A stretch of DNA of 64,000 nt, from positions 1-64,000 of the IMG/VR virus record IMGVR_UViG_3300033070_001349; one strand, given 5' to 3'. The notes beneath the pieces were generated by a model, which saw nothing but the letters and a program-made list of their open reading frames with translations, had not been told where the DNA came from and searched no databases. The translations under genes and the position numbers were made by a program. Positions 49,545 through 58,158 of this stretch are shown piece after piece. The stretch's first letter is position 1. The number at the start of each line of letters is the position of its first letter. Source of the DNA: a virus (taxonomy: Duplodnaviria > Caudoviricetes).

Positions 49545-50540
49545 GTGTGGTCCCCCCGCGCCCTCCTCGCCGAGCGGTCCAGCCCGAAGGGTACGAGCTC
49601 GTGGGCGGCCGTCGTCCTCGCCCTCGACGGCCCCTCCCGGTCCGCCCTGGCGATCGAGGACGGCCTCCCCTCTAAGGAGCTCCACTGCACCCTCACCGTC
49701 CACGGCAAGGTCGACGAGCTCGGGCCCGACGCCTTCGAGAAGCTCAAGCGAGCGGTCGAGGGGTGGGCCGGGGGTCGGGCCCCCTTCGAGGCCCAGGTCG
49801 GAGGGATCGGGCGCTTCGCTGGGGACGACGAGGGCGGGGACCCGGTCTACCTCCCGGTCGACTGCGCACGGCTCACTCGGGAGCGTCCTGACCTCCTCAA
49901 GGCCCTGGCGAAGGAGGGCGTGAAGGCCCGCGAGGACCACGGCTTCAACGCCCACATCACCCTGGCCTACATCGACCCCGAGGACGACCTCCCGGTGCAG
50001 CGCATCGACAAGCGCACCCTGACCTTCGGCCGCGTCGAGGTCTGGTACGGCGGGAAGCGGGCAGGGTACAATCTCTCGAAGGAAGCACAGGAGCACGTTC
50101 GCATGGATGCCAGGACGCTACGGGCCCTCTCGGAGATCGCCTCCACCCCCACGGAGAGGCTCGCGCAGCGCCTCCGCGAGGCCGAGGAGCCTTCGGGCGG
50201 CCACGAGGGGGAGAAGATGGTCTTCGGGACGTGGCGCAAGCTCGGGCCCGACGCCGCCGGGAAGAAGCCCGGGGAGCCGGGCTACAAGGGGCCCACGCAG
50301 AACCAGCGCCGCCACGGCGCCGAGCTCAACAAGCACGGCGACGCCGAGAAGGACTGGACCGTGTGGGGCCCCCACCCCACGGCCAGGGGAAAGTGGAACT
50401 ACCTCGGGACGCACAAGGGCACCTACGCCTCCGCCCTGACCAAGTACGCCGACGACCCGGGCTTCCACACGAGCGGGAAGAAGAACTACCAGGGCGTCAT
50501 CAAGCCGTCGAGCGACCACACCCGGGTCAAGATCCAGTAG
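49545..50540 (+). CDS. 2H-phosphoesterase (Acb1/LigT-like) fused in frame to leader-bearing module 6 (internal ATG 50103)
   Basis: LHCTL and AHITLAY motifs; internal SD plus MDARTLRALSE; HEGEKMVFGTWRK. Confidence 0.8.
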   Translation: MWSPRALLAERSSPKGTSSWAAVVLALDGPSRSALAIEDGLPSKELHCTLTVHGKVDELGPDAFEKLKRAVEGWAGGRAPFEAQVGGIGRFAGDDEGGDPVYLPVDCARLTRERPDLLKALAKEGVKAREDHGFNAHITLAYIDPEDDLPVQRIDKRTLTFGRVEVWYGGKRAGYNLSKEAQEHVRMDARTLRALSEIASTPTERLAQRLREAEEPSGGHEGEKMVFGTWRKLGPDAAGKKPGEPGYKGPTQNQRRHGAELNKHGDAEKDWTVWGPHPTARGKWNYLGTHKGTYASALTKYADDPGFHTSGKKNYQGVIKPSSDHTRVKIQ

Positions 50541-55406: not shown

Positions 55407-55724
55407 GTGGACTACCGCAAGCCCTTCCGGGTGCTCAGGGCCGCCAGGAACCTGAGCCAGAAGGAGCTCGCGGCGCGGATGGGGGTCACCCCCACCGTCA
55501 TCTCCCTCGCCGAGACCGGCGCCAGGAAGCCCTCCCGCGAGGTGGTCGAGCGAGCCGCTCGGGCCCTCGGGGTCTCCCTCCCCCTCTTCACGACCCTGGC
55601 CATGACCCCTGAGGCGTTCGCCGCCCTGACGCCTGCCGTCGTGGAGGGGGTGACCGCCGAGCTCCTCTCGGTGGTCCTCTCAGGGGAACATGGCCCCGCC
55701 GCGACCCCGCCCCCTCCGAATTGA
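55407..55724 (+). CDS. XRE-family HTH regulator
   Basis: LRAARNLSQKELAARMGVTPTVISLAETGARKPS. Confidence 0.85.
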   Translation: MDYRKPFRVLRAARNLSQKELAARMGVTPTVISLAETGARKPSREVVERAARALGVSLPLFTTLAMTPEAFAALTPAVVEGVTAELLSVVLSGEHGPAATPPPPN

Positions 55725-55754
55725 CTACGCCTAGACACCTGATAGATTGGTGTC

Positions 55755-55949
55755 ATGCGCGACCAGTCTGTCCAGGCCGTCCACGAGCCCGTGGAGGGCT
55801 CCAAGCTCCGCATCCATCGGGGGGTCTACGCCGGGAAGGTCGGTGTGGTTCGGGGGCCCTACGCCGACCCGGTCCGCCCGGCGGGGTACAAGGTCGTCAT
55901 CGAAGGGGTCGCCACGGTCGTCTTCACTTTCGAGACGATGGCCCCTTGA
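55755..55949 (+). CDS. small KOW/SH3-like protein with its own leaderless promoter (55721-55748)
   Basis: LRIHRGVYAGKVGVV; TTGACT-N16-TAGATT-N6-ATG. Confidence 0.5.
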   Translation: MRDQSVQAVHEPVEGSKLRIHRGVYAGKVGVVRGPYADPVRPAGYKVVIEGVATVVFTFETMAP

Positions 55950-55973
55950 CTCCTCCAATCTAGGACATAGAAT
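55946..55973 (+). promoter_or_regulatory. promoter of the ncRNA island
   Basis: TTGACT-N16-TAGAAT. Confidence 0.8.
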
Positions 55974-55982
55974 ACAACTCGT

Positions 55983-56202
55983 GAGCGGCTCGATCGGTGA
56001 GCCCTTCGCGAACACCTCAAACGGACCCCCCGGACCATCCTCCGGGAGCGAAGGGCGAGGTGACGACGATCTAGCCCGCGACGCAGGCGAGGAGCTTGCG
56101 GAAGCAACCCGAGGAGGGGAGCGCGTCGGGCACTACGAGGGCGGACTGGGCCCCCGAAAAGGATCGAGGCAGCGCGCGAAGGATTCACCGATCGAGCCGC
56201 TC
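55983..56202 (+). ncRNA. 220-nt structured RNA closed by a 28-bp stem
   Basis: 55983-56010 pairs with 56175-56202 (one G-U, one mismatch); internal hairpins. Confidence 0.75.
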
Positions 56203-56207
56203 CAACC

Positions 56208-56284
56208 CCTCGCGTGGCGCAAAGCAGACGCGCTCCGTTCAGACCGGAGACATAGTGCGGGTTCGAGACCCGCGGCGAGGACCA
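56208..56284 (+). tRNA. atypical tRNA-Leu(CAG)
   Basis: CTCCG-TTCAGAC-CGGAG, GCGGG-TTCGAGA-CCCGC, 3' ACCA; G7:G66 mismatch, no D-loop GG, 7-nt variable region. Confidence 0.7.
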
Positions 56285-56307
56285 GACCGCTCCCGCAGAC
56301 CACCCCC

Positions 56308-56323
56308 GGAGTCATATGACTCC
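56308..56323. repeat. 16-bp palindrome, copy 13 (fully symmetric, 7 bp upstream of a -35)
   Basis: GGAGTCA-TA-TGACTCC. Confidence 0.92.
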
Positions 56324-56330
56324 AAGCCCG

Positions 56331-56358
56331 TTGACCTGACGGGCCTGCGTGATAGGTT
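56331..56358 (+). promoter_or_regulatory. second ncRNA promoter
   Basis: TTGACC-N16-TAGGTT. Confidence 0.75.
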
Positions 56359-56364
56359 GCAGTT

Positions 56365-56459
56365 GTTCAGACCCGGGGCCCTCCGAGACGGTCTCCTCCC
56401 CCGTGCCCCCTCGCGGCTCCCCGCCCGCCGCGAATCCTCCGAGGGCCCCGGGCCTGGGC
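56365..56459 (+). ncRNA. 95-nt RNA with a long terminal stem and two C-rich loops
   Basis: CCCGGGGCCCTC/GAGGGCCCCGGG; loops TCTCCTCCC and TCCCCGCCC; starts at the predicted +1. Confidence 0.65.
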
Positions 56460-56470
56460 GTTCGTTCGAT

Positions 56471-56547
56471 TCTCCCGTAGCTCAATTGGCTAGAGCACCG
56501 GCTTCCTAAGCCGGTTGTTGCAGGTTCGAGTCCTGCCGGGGGTGCCA
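56471..56547 (+). tRNA. tRNA-Arg(CCT)
   Basis: Cloverleaf GCTC/GAGC, CCGGC-TTCCTAA-GCCGG, GCAGG-TTCGAGT-CCTGC, 3' GCCA; U1:U72 mismatch. Confidence 0.92.
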
Positions 56548-56688
56548 TCCGTCGTCCAAGTTTAGGACGCTCGCTGATCGACCATCGGGGACGCCCGGGG
56601 CGGTCCGACCGGGGTCGCTCCCTGGAGTACCTGCGAGAGATGCTGTCTGTCCGCCCCTCCATAAGGGGGGCGGTGAGCAGCCGGACCA
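56548..56688 (+). ncRNA. tRNA-derived RNA with a 58-nt anticodon-loop insert and an expanded T-arm
   Basis: TCCG/CGGA plus CCA; D-arm GTCC/GGAC; CTCGC/GCGAG; AGAT; GCTG/CAGC. Confidence 0.55.
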
Positions 56689-56720
56689 ATTCACCCTGAC
56701 AGAGAAAAGGACGTGCGAAC

Positions 56721-57035
56721 ATGGCGAGCGAGATGGAGAAGATCCTCAAGGACCTCCCGGTGGGCTACATCGAAGACATGGTCTCCGCGGACCCGGCGAA
56801 GCTCCGGGACGAGATCGTGAAGGCGGACGCCCGCGCGGCCGAGATCAAGCGGGAGATGAAGGCCGACGAGAAGCTCGCGGGGGCCCGCGAGATCGTCAAG
56901 GACCTGTCCGGGGGCTACCGCGACGCCCTCAAGGCCCAGGCCGCCAAGGTGGCGTGGTGCCTCCACGAGCTCGACGAGAAGGGCCAGCCGGTCGACACGG
57001 GCTCCGAGGAGCCGGTCCCGGTGCCCGAGAAGTAG
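56721..57035 (+). CDS. hypothetical coiled-coil protein inside the RNA island
   Basis: AAGGA SD, 104-aa charged helical ORF. Confidence 0.7.
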   Translation: MASEMEKILKDLPVGYIEDMVSADPAKLRDEIVKADARAAEIKREMKADEKLAGAREIVKDLSGGYRDALKAQAAKVAWCLHELDEKGQPVDTGSEEPVPVPEK

Positions 57036-57039
57036 CTAC

Positions 57040-57164
57040 GGCCGGGTCGTCCAACGGCAAGACGACCGGAACCTCCCCCAGGTGAGCGCTTGCCCGGGAG
57101 GAGGGCCCGAGGGTAGATCGCCCTCGGTGGGGAGATGCGGGTTCGAGTCCCGCCCCGGCGACCA
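57040..57164 (+). ncRNA. tRNA-like RNA with the anticodon arm replaced by a multi-hairpin insert
   Basis: GCCGGG/CCCGGC plus ACCA; D-arm GTC-CAACGGCAA-GAC; T-arm GCGGG-TTCGAGT-CCCGC. Confidence 0.7.
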
Positions 57165-57264
57165 GCTTGACGGAGGCCCAGGTTCAACTCCGGGCACTTC
57201 TCCTCGGAGGGGTGTGGTGTAGGAGGTACGTCCCCCCGGGGGCGAGGCCGCGCACCGTCGAGCT
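57164..57264 (+). ncRNA. YrlA/Y-RNA-like circularly permuted tRNA mimic
   Basis: Outer stem AGCTTGACGG/CCGTCGAGCT; T-arm, loop-closed acceptor stem, D-arm in that order. Confidence 0.6.
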
Positions 57265-57292
57265 CCTCTATTCAACTACCGAGGTCCGCACC

Positions 57293-57547
57293 ATGAGCAT
57301 CCTGACCCGCCTCGCGCACCACCTCCACCTCGCGACCCGGGACTACCTCCGCTCCCGCGGGGAGACCCCCGGGATCTGGGGGGAGCGCCGCGAGCTCTAC
57401 GACAGGTGCCATCAGGCCTACGCCCAGGGCCGAACCTCGGAGGCCCGCGCCCTCCTCGACACGCTGAAGCTCGACCCGACGGGGATCGAGGCGGACCTCG
57501 TCCGCCTGGAGCTCCTCGTCCGCCGGAAGGAGTCGCTCGCCACATGA
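57293..57547 (+). CDS. hypothetical protein
   Basis: GAGG SD, ATGA-coupled to the AlkB-like gene. Confidence 0.55.
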   Translation: MSILTRLAHHLHLATRDYLRSRGETPGIWGERRELYDRCHQAYAQGRTSEARALLDTLKLDPTGIEADLVRLELLVRRKESLAT

Positions 57548-58158
57548 CCAAGCCCACCTACACCCCCCGCTACGTCGCCTCCATCCTCCCCGCCGGGGGC
57601 CTGCCCGAGCACAAGCTCTACGACTCCGTCCTCGCGACCCTGCGGGACGAGGCACAGTGGGACGACACGCACGACGCCCCGCGGTCGGAGTGCTTCATGG
57701 CCGAGGACCAGGGGGCGGTCTACTCCTACGGGTCGCAGGCCCGGGGACGGACCTACAAGGCCACGCCCATGCACCCCCTGGTCAAGGCGATCATGGACGG
57801 GATGAACGCCGACCTCAAGACGGCGTACAACGTGTGCGTCCTGAACCGCTACAAGGACGGCCACCAACACCTGGGGTGGCACTGCGACGACAGCCCCGAG
57901 CAGGACAAGGACCACCCCATCGCGGTCGTATCGTTCGGGGCCGAGCGGGCGATCTGGACCCGCGTCAACGGGCACAAGGGCCCGATCCCCGACGAGGACA
58001 AGTACCTCCTCGGCCAGGGGAGCCTCTTCGTGATGCCGGTGGGCTACCAGGACACGCATCAGCACAAGATCCCCAAGCACGACCGGGAGTGCGGAATGCG
58101 CATCTCCCTCACCTTCCGCAAGCTCGACGTGCTCGTGCCGATGCTGGGGGCGGGGTGA
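57544..58158 (+). CDS. AlkB-family 2OG-Fe(II) dioxygenase (ALKBH2/3-like)
   Basis: LNRYKDG..LGWHCDD, IAVVSFGAER, GSLFVM, HKIPK, RISLTFR. Confidence 0.92.
   Translation: MTKPTYTPRYVASILPAGGLPEHKLYDSVLATLRDEAQWDDTHDAPRSECFMAEDQGAVYSYGSQARGRTYKATPMHPLVKAIMDGMNADLKTAYNVCVLNRYKDGHQHLGWHCDDSPEQDKDHPIAVVSFGAERAIWTRVNGHKGPIPDEDKYLLGQGSLFVMPVGYQDTHQHKIPKHDRECGMRISLTFRKLDVLVPMLGAG

Follow-up and report, generated by a model that had tools for sequence, protein, structure and literature searches.

What is encoded in about 1 kb of non-coding DNA that a phage keeps behind two promoters of its own family, and are the products tRNAs, tRNA mimics, or RNAs of another kind? The question is raised by an island at positions 55946-57264 of the first 64 kb (referred to below as the window) of a linear virus record of 148,482 bp from IMG/VR (IMGVR_UViG_3300033070_001349; Caudoviricetes), with an estimated completeness of 78%. 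A preliminary description of the window had listed two promoters and seven structured RNAs in this island, most of them taken to be tRNA mimics, and had proposed an RNA arsenal of decoys, sponges, or aptamers cut from tRNA-punctuated precursors. In the best reading, which we hold with moderate confidence, the island is a tRNA-punctuated early operon that would release stable leader RNAs, tRNAs, and small mRNAs. It is most likely that two of the RNAs (A and B) and a tRNA-derived chimera (S2) function as stable RNAs and are not debris. The units on which the argument depends are given below (CDS, coding sequence; aa, amino acids; GC3, G+C fraction at third codon positions).

55721-55748, + strand: upstream promoter, TTGACT-16-TAGATT with TG (generic scan and family search)
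55946-55973, + strand: promoter P1, TTGACT-16-TAGAAT (generic scan, 10/12 matches)
55981-56203, + strand: RNA A, about 220 nt (fold stability, inverted repeat, no coding signal)
56208-56284, + strand: tRNA(CAG), an atypical tRNA with anticodon CAG and encoded ACCA (ARAGORN; RF00005 with lax filters)
56331-56358, + strand: promoter P2, TTGACC-17-TAGGTT with TG (phage promoter family)
56365-56459, + strand: RNA B, about 95 nt (fold stability)
56471-56547, + strand: tRNA-Arg(CCU), canonical, with encoded CCA and U-U at 1-72 (ARAGORN and Rfam)
56548-56693, + strand: S1, a weak candidate for a tRNA mimic; a structured spacer that also forms the 5' leader of the 104-aa CDS
56721-57035, + strand: 104-aa CDS within the island, function unassigned (GC3 0.99)
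57040-57164, + strand: S2, tRNA-derived chimera (RF00005, model R1, and fold energies)
57165-57262, + strand: Pm, 98 nt, weak, non-coding by the gene call of the collection

Non-coding character and promoters of the island

The record has a G+C content of 71%, and nearly all of its genes lie on the + strand. According to a codon usage model trained on the phage genome itself, non-coding gaps of at least 150 nt are found at only 19 places in the 148 kb, and the 771-nt gap at 55950-56720 ranks second among them in size. This gap and the segment at 57036-57292 have negative coding scores in all six frames, and strongly positive scores were obtained for the 104-aa CDS, which had been described previously as one small CDS, and for the 84-aa CDS and AlkB gene that follow the island. 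With negative scores in every frame, the island is genuinely non-coding, in a genome that has few such gaps.

The two promoters reported at 55946 and 56331 were both recovered, by different routes. A generic promoter scan yielded 2 sites (55946 and 55721) against 0.1 expected; it misses TAGGTT and hence P2, which was assigned by a genome-wide search for the promoter family of the phage. About 30 sites make up the family. They read TTGACn-N16-18-TAGATT or TAGGTT, most lie within the first 72 kb (for example, at 603, 2979, 24895, 28653, 44205, 53038, 55721, and 63496), and many of them carry ATGCGC just 5' of the -10 element. At least 14 family promoters have an ATG or GTG 7 to 8 nt past the -10 element, so that leaderless mRNAs are predicted from about half of the promoters of the phage. 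One of these is the promoter at 55721, predicted to drive a leaderless 64-aa CDS (55755-55949) whose ATG lies 7 nt past the -10 element and whose stop codon is overlapped by the -35 element of P1. Because the start codons fall at this fixed distance, the transcription start is likely calibrated for the whole family, and the starts predicted for P1 (~55980) and P2 (~56365) coincide exactly with the base of the closing stems of RNAs A and B. P1 and P2 are the only promoters in the family that precede more than 300 nt without coding signal.

RNAs A and B

RNA A corresponds to the 220-nt RNA of the preliminary description. Its closing stem of 19 + 8 bp (27 bp) surrounds a purine-rich 165-nt core, and its fold of -121 kcal/mol (z score, -5.5) was equaled in stability by none of 200 shuffles. 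The 18-bp perfect inverted repeat in RNA A is the longest of the genome (320-nt span, 148 kb), compared with 13 to 15 bp in Markov shuffles. The core contains five CGAGG motifs (56056-56169) spaced by 22 to 32 nt (about 27 nt); the motif is modestly enriched (uncorrected P, about 0.008), and other parts of the genome are equally dense in it. RNA A matched no Rfam family, and on this ground a small RNase P RNA, 6S RNA, or signal recognition particle RNA was dropped as its identity. Other identities were also rejected: a leaderless open reading frame starting from GTG at 55981 has a codon score of -45.8 and a GC3 of 0.65; a retron RNA would agree with the terminal repeats, but no RVT_1 domain or reverse transcriptase was found in the 148-kb record; and a mobile element or origin does not agree with a sequence that is single-copy in the genome and whose repeat is absent from IMG/VR.

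RNA B, the 95-nt RNA of the preliminary description, is likewise more stable than all of 200 shuffles (z score, -4.4). It consists of a 12-bp stem bearing two hairpins, each with a C/U-rich loop of 9 nt (56392-56400 and 56418-56426). The loops, UCUCCUCCC and UCCCCGCCC, resemble the anti-Shine-Dalgarno sequence, and CTCC and CCCC are enriched in RNA B. Sites complementary to these loops are not enriched at ribosome-binding or start sites of the phage, and the idea that the loops are aimed at phage ribosome-binding sites was therefore dropped. Models of 6C RNA (RF01066) and 6S RNA (RF00013) gave no match at E values up to 10 over 55700-57500. Neither A nor B is tRNA-like at all.

Two tRNAs, one of them atypical

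tRNA-Arg(CCU), identified earlier as a tRNA-Arg, scored 62.9 bits against RF00005 (56471-56544; gathering cut-off, 29 bits) and is the only tRNA recovered by a standard search of the entire 148 kb. A D-arm-less tRNA-like element with a CCU anticodon, the same anticodon as that of this tRNA-Arg, was observed in a phage (G002) that shares the 104-aa protein (L005:1501-1559; loop, UUCCUAA; 24.1 bits).

The second tRNA had been described as an atypical tRNA-Leu. That it is an atypical tRNA was borne out by ARAGORN and by a score of 34.1 bits against RF00005 (56208-56281) when it was searched alone with lax filters, standard filters having missed it, and its minimum-free-energy fold is a cloverleaf with discriminator A73. 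Bacterial tRNA-Leu has a long class II variable arm and G18G19 in the D loop; in tRNA(CAG) the variable region is about 7 nt long without a stem, the D loop (AAAGCAGAC) lacks GG, and there is a G-G at 7-66. Because of the short variable region and the absence of the D-loop GG, tRNA(CAG) is not a normal bacterial tRNA-Leu. In all predicted genes of the phage, CUG is avoided: the ratio of C- to G-ending codons (CUC/CUG) is 5.75 for leucine and 1.2 to 1.9 for the other seven four-fold families, an avoidance three to five times stronger than that of any other G-ending four-fold codon. Even so, the phage carries the atypical, CUG-reading tRNA(CAG). The bias may simply mirror the codon usage of the host.

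S2 is a tRNA skeleton with a structured insert

The second "tRNA scaffold" of the preliminary description proved to be the sole convincing tRNA mimic in the island. In S2 the acceptor (6 bp), a D arm of Glu/Gln type, and a perfect T arm are retained together with ACCA, and about 72 nt forming two hairpins (57072-57104 and 57107-57127) replace the anticodon arm. The loop of the second hairpin (UAGAUCG) is not usable as an anticodon loop. S2 scored 22.8 bits against RF00005 with a 64-nt insertion, which is below the cut-off of 29 bits, and its tRNA-like fold is less stable than the minimum-free-energy fold by 2.6 kcal/mol. Features of transfer-messenger RNA (tmRNA) were not found: ARAGORN called no tmRNA, Rfam gave no match, and S2 has C3-G70 rather than G3-U70. 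S2 begins 4 nt past the stop codon of the 104-aa CDS. As noted earlier, some units abut encoded CCA ends directly, and this is the case for tRNA-Arg and S1 (56547/56548) and for S2 and Pm (57164/57165).

A pattern consisting of a Glu-type D arm followed by a T loop 48 to 78 nt later was found at 88 loci in IMG/VR, with 38 distinct sequences having well-paired acceptors around 100 to 128 nt. More than half of these sequences (21) form one family of ~120 nt (alignment A2, model R1), including L027:4994-5113, L045:2267-2385, and L074:9747-9866 among the loci L026-L108. Members of the R1 family begin with a 7-bp acceptor and a D arm of the form UCGUCyAA...GACG. An insertion follows, in which a hairpin is accompanied by CAGCA without variation, and then a 4-bp stem closing a loop of 7 nt (AU-NNN-AA). 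A junction of GAGAU type leads to the T arm, and most members end in ACCA. The middle triplet of the loop varies (GUC, GUU, UCU, UUC, UCC, and UGG) on near-identical scaffolds. In the family alignment 95.2% of the cells are paired, and changes on both sides occur in 18 of 27 pairs, including 5 of the 6 in the insertion hairpin, a level of covariation that was reached by none of 500 shuffles. To judge from the alignment, the R1 design is clearly kept by selection in other phages. Nearly all members are found in tRNA arrays (up to 34 tRNAs on the same strand), and an ordinary tRNA with an anticodon matching the loop of the R1 member is already present in many of these arrays. No member is called by ARAGORN, the only matches in Rfam 15 are of the tRNA-with-insertion kind (39 to 47 bits), and a search of isolate phages returned nothing.

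S2 itself is not a member of the R1 family. It scored 30.3 bits against R1, with the insertion helix deleted in the alignment, compared with ~46 bits for hits of ordinary tRNA length (75 nt) and 80 to 132 bits for family members; its insert has no similarity to those of the family; and the family hairpin, CAGCA, and the anticodon-like loop are missing. By resemblance of design rather than by membership, S2 is a further and independent instance of the same architecture, and the recurrence of covarying insert-bearing tRNA-like RNAs elsewhere makes it less attractive to read S2 as a decaying pseudogene. Further RNA genes were observed in phage contigs carrying tRNA arrays (L066:2103-2427, L033:2091-2367, and L071:1326-1530), where an RNase P RNA-like sequence (79.6 bits; cut-off, 100) and a permuted tmRNA (81.5 bits) were present.

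S1 and Pm

Five of the seven structured RNA units proposed earlier were supported, and the remaining two, S1 and Pm, are weak. S1 had been called a tRNA scaffold. It has a D-arm-like hairpin, a 4-bp end stem in place of an acceptor, and a CCA end, but it lacks a T loop and the GG of the D loop. Among the tRNA models only a 17-nt D-arm piece was matched (R1), RF00005 gave no match at E values up to 10, and its z score was -1.15. S1 and S2 are not paralogues, as they share just one 8-mer and one 7-mer, which by our estimate is about chance for such lengths. Pm had been called a permuted tRNA mimic; it has a 9-bp closing stem, one T-arm-like hairpin with a mismatch, and a z score of -0.45, and it matched neither RF00005 (E values up to 10) nor YrlA. 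S1 and Pm were also rejected as YrlA RNAs on the absence of a Ro-binding motif from the units and the absence of a YrlA match for Pm. The statement that most of the units are tRNA mimics was thus overstated, since tRNA-Arg(CCU) and tRNA(CAG) pass the tRNA cut-off. Two tRNA-like genes elsewhere (L023:10697-10815 and L100:4746-4865) contain a nested T-arm-like hairpin (GGUUCAAsUCC) in the anticodon region, and the same unusual T-loop variant occurs in Pm.

Proposed organization of the island

Promoters feed structured RNAs that are split by CCA-encoding units of tRNA type, from which release by tRNA-processing enzymes is a reasonable inference. In the organization that we propose as the most economical, host RNA polymerase would transcribe two units in which the tRNAs and tRNA-shaped elements serve as processing punctuation. 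The P1 unit would consist of RNA A followed by tRNA(CAG), and the P2 unit of RNA B, tRNA-Arg(CCU), the structured leader S1, a small mRNA, S2, and the mRNAs for the 84-aa orphan and AlkB. Each module of acceptor, T arm, and CCA would be cut by RNase P and by enzymes of the host that trim tRNA 3' ends, such as RNase Z. The predicted products are very stable A and B RNAs with base-paired 5' ends, tRNAs for AGG and CUG, and mRNAs with defined ends.

Several observations weigh against this organization. S1 and Pm are no more stable than their shuffles, and mismatches occur at 1-72 in tRNA-Arg and S2 and at 7-66 in tRNA(CAG). A scan for intrinsic terminators found none. Searches of isolate phages, IMG/VR, JGI metagenomes, and GTDB genomes yielded no homologues of A, B, S1, the S2 insert, or Pm; at the DNA level, exact scans for the repeat of A (IMG/VR) and the 3' half of S2 (GTDB genomes) returned nothing, and in JGI metagenomes the S2-type pattern occurred only at three unrelated loci. 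In addition, distant AlkB genes of the isolate phages XacN1 and Cr30 are not located beside tRNAs.

Alternative explanations

The arsenal proposed earlier, in which A, B, and S2, perhaps with S1 and Pm, would act as effectors against host defense or translation, is doubtful. Its architecture stood (promoters, structured RNAs, and tRNA punctuation), but for the proposed decoys, sponges, or aptamers no partner protein nearby, no target, and no conserved homologue of any unit were found. S2 might decoy enzymes that read the acceptor, the elbow, or the CCA end, as it has a complete tRNA elbow and CCA and no usable anticodon loop, and insert-bearing tRNA-like RNAs are conserved in arrays that already hold matching ordinary tRNAs; on the other hand, its insert is unrelated to that of the conserved R1 family, and because it has no anticodon loop it cannot decoy anticodon nucleases. 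RNA B might pair with G-rich or Shine-Dalgarno regions through its two exposed loops, and the leaderless mRNAs predicted from about half of the promoters would be insensitive to such interference; against this, loop-complementary sites are not enriched at phage ribosome-binding sites. RNA A would contribute its five CGAGG repeats, the enrichment of which is modest. A more elaborate scheme, a translation-reprogramming kit of B and A, tRNA(CAG), S2, and AlkB acting together, is highly improbable. In such a kit, B and A would shift initiation from Shine-Dalgarno-led host mRNAs to leaderless phage mRNAs, the class I tRNA(CAG) would decode the strongly avoided CUG codon abnormally, the CCA-tailed S2 would occupy a tRNA-handling enzyme, and AlkB would keep the RNAs of the kit free of methyl lesions.

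Decay offers another account, in which only tRNA-Arg is functional and everything else consists of remnants and spacer with chance structure. The single canonical tRNA, the acceptor-stem mismatches in tRNA(CAG) and S2, the lone arm-like hairpins of S1 and Pm, and the D-arm-less Arg(CCU)-like remnant in the more distant phage G002 all fit it. We nevertheless consider it unlikely, as a densely packed genome keeps about 1 kb behind two strong promoters, A and B are extremely stable without being tRNA-like, tRNA(CAG) passes the Rfam cut-off, and the gain by S2 of about 72 nt in two stable hairpins with an intact T arm and CCA is not erosion. That the elements function as DNA, with the repeat of A marking mobile-element ends or an origin and the tRNA-like pieces being attachment-site cores, is extremely improbable: an 18-bp perfect inverted repeat flanks A and the related phage G001 has a partial tRNA beside an integrase, but A is single-copy, its repeat is absent from IMG/VR, no target-site duplication was seen, and the promoters are set so that transcription would start exactly at the stems. 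Attachment sites were dropped because no tyrosine integrase was found in the 148-kb record. A Ro60/Y-RNA module, in which Pm or the junction of tRNA-Arg and S1 would be a YrlA-like permuted mimic serving Ro60, has been largely refuted and retains hardly any probability. The sole match to YrlA (RF02553; cut-off, 69 bits) is partial (56514-56570; model positions 25-83; 30.2 bits) and consists of the T arm of tRNA-Arg and the next D-arm-like hairpin, which is the tandem-tRNA artefact of adjacent T and D arms that is excluded in the description of YrlA (PMC4201824). Among contigs with AlkB homologues, two hold Ro60 beside tRNAs, in one case together with a YrlA candidate and in the other with RtcB, but Pm has no YrlA match, the Ro-binding motif GNCGAAN0-1G is absent from all RNA units and occurs only inside the CDS at 56795, and no TROVE/Ro60 or RtcB was found in the 148-kb record, from which ~22% of the genome is missing. 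Reverse transcriptase, CCA-adding enzyme, and tyrosine integrase were not found in this record either.

Neighboring genes and related phages

The other features in and around the island are as follows.

49665-49991: 2H phosphoesterase, 6 kb upstream of the island
56308-56323, no strand assigned: 16-bp palindrome GGAGTCATATGACTCC between the two transcription units, forming a hairpin, with related copies dispersed genome-wide
57293-57547, + strand: 84-aa orphan CDS (codon statistics; no homologue)
57544-58158, + strand: AlkB-family 2-oxoglutarate-Fe(II) dioxygenase; the gene overlaps the stop of the 84-aa CDS

The palindrome GGAGTCATATGACTCC may bind a protein or serve as a terminator hairpin. 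The AlkB-like gene reported to follow the island is present (PF13532, 60.8 bits against a cut-off of 31.2; Pfam, 2.6e-16; PHROG 21963, 2e-52). For the HAD, 2H, and ASCH proteins said to lie elsewhere in the window, only 2H was recovered, and neither HAD_2 (PF13419) nor ASCH (PF04266) was found in the genome.

In five of seven independent AlkB contexts (the window and six homologues with 55 to 68% identity), tRNA genes lie within ~2.5 kb. Among them are a 24-tRNA array with RlaP (L006), a YrlA candidate with three tRNAs and Ro60 (L008; the YrlA candidate and tRNAs are repeated in the shorter L009), a tRNA ~2 kb away (L018), and tRNAs directly after AlkB followed by Ro60 (vWA_Ro60) and RtcB, with an RNA ligase in the context (L020). 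Ro60 thus stands beside AlkB in two phage lineages, accompanied in L008 by a YrlA candidate and in L020 by RtcB. This recurrent placement beside tRNAs, Ro60, and RtcB suggests, without proving it, that the AlkB family acts on RNA rather than DNA.

In the collections searched the phage has no close relative: the best non-self matches are those of AlkB (68% identity), the 104-aa CDS (67%), and a UvrD helicase (47%), and none of their loci has the island. Homologues of the 104-aa CDS (51 to 67% identity) occur in phage or bacterial surroundings where genes are closely spaced and no RNAs are present. The relatives G001 and G002, obtained from IMG/VR protein searches with the 104-aa CDS, AlkB, and the UvrD helicase, contain no comparable island, and a blastn search of the island against isolate phages gave generic tRNA matches only. 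Just past the window, a 500-nt non-coding region of the record (G000 65469-65970) with a 17-bp inverted repeat and repeated GGTGGCG/CGCCACC looks like an iteron-type origin and not an RNA.

Comparison with known systems

The preliminary description knew of no system with this combination. That holds for the exact set; its parts have precedents in the T4 cluster, phage YrlA, and tRNA punctuation, and the island is of a known kind, a phage tRNA cluster with accompanying stable RNAs. T4 encodes eight ordinary tRNAs and the small stable RNAs species 1 and 2, to which no function has been assigned and which are cut from tRNA-containing precursors. The likeness lies in the co-transcription, predicted here, of phage tRNA genes with non-tRNA stable RNAs, but the present island has one canonical tRNA, its accompanying RNAs lead the transcripts, and no sequence relation to T4 was found. 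Non-tRNA substrates of RNase P are also known from phages, namely, the C4 RNA precursor of P1 and P7 and the M3 RNA of phi80, which are of hairpin type with a CCA end; no sequence or structural relation to them was found here.

In tRNA punctuation, as in mitochondrial transcripts, MALAT1-mascRNA, and the tRNA-miRNA (microRNA) units of gammaherpesvirus 68, RNase P and RNase Z set the ends of RNAs. The position of the tRNA-shaped S2, 4 nt after a stop codon, recalls this arrangement, although the known cases are eukaryotic or organellar and processing in the phage is predicted. The 6C RNA of Actinobacteria (RF01066) and other small RNAs with C-rich loops pair with G-rich mRNA regions through the loops of two hairpins. 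RNA B also shows C-rich loops on two hairpins, but these rise from a long stem that they share, immediately 5' to a tRNA, and no Rfam match was obtained at E values up to 10.

With the R1 family, S2 shares the acceptor, the UCGUCyAA...GACG type of D arm, a structured RNA between the D and T arms, the GAGAU junction, the T arm, ACCA, and the lack of an ARAGORN call, and it differs in having neither the hairpin and CAGCA insert nor the anticodon-like loop. The YrlA/Ro60 system (RF02553; PMC4201824) likewise includes tRNA-mimicking non-coding RNAs that in phages stand beside tRNAs, but S2 is not permuted, no Ro60 is present in the 148-kb record, and the units lack a Ro-binding motif.

Codon supply is the usual interpretation of tRNA regions in phages, whereas in this island two strong early promoters mainly serve RNAs other than ordinary tRNAs. 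Skeletons of tRNA with structured inserts recur in the tRNA arrays of uncultivated phages, and one family of them is, by its covariation, clearly selected. If the RNAs are stable products, they would point to an unstudied level at which phage and host interact, through tRNA processing, repair, or translation, and such natural "tRNA scaffolds" would then be of interest to RNA engineers.

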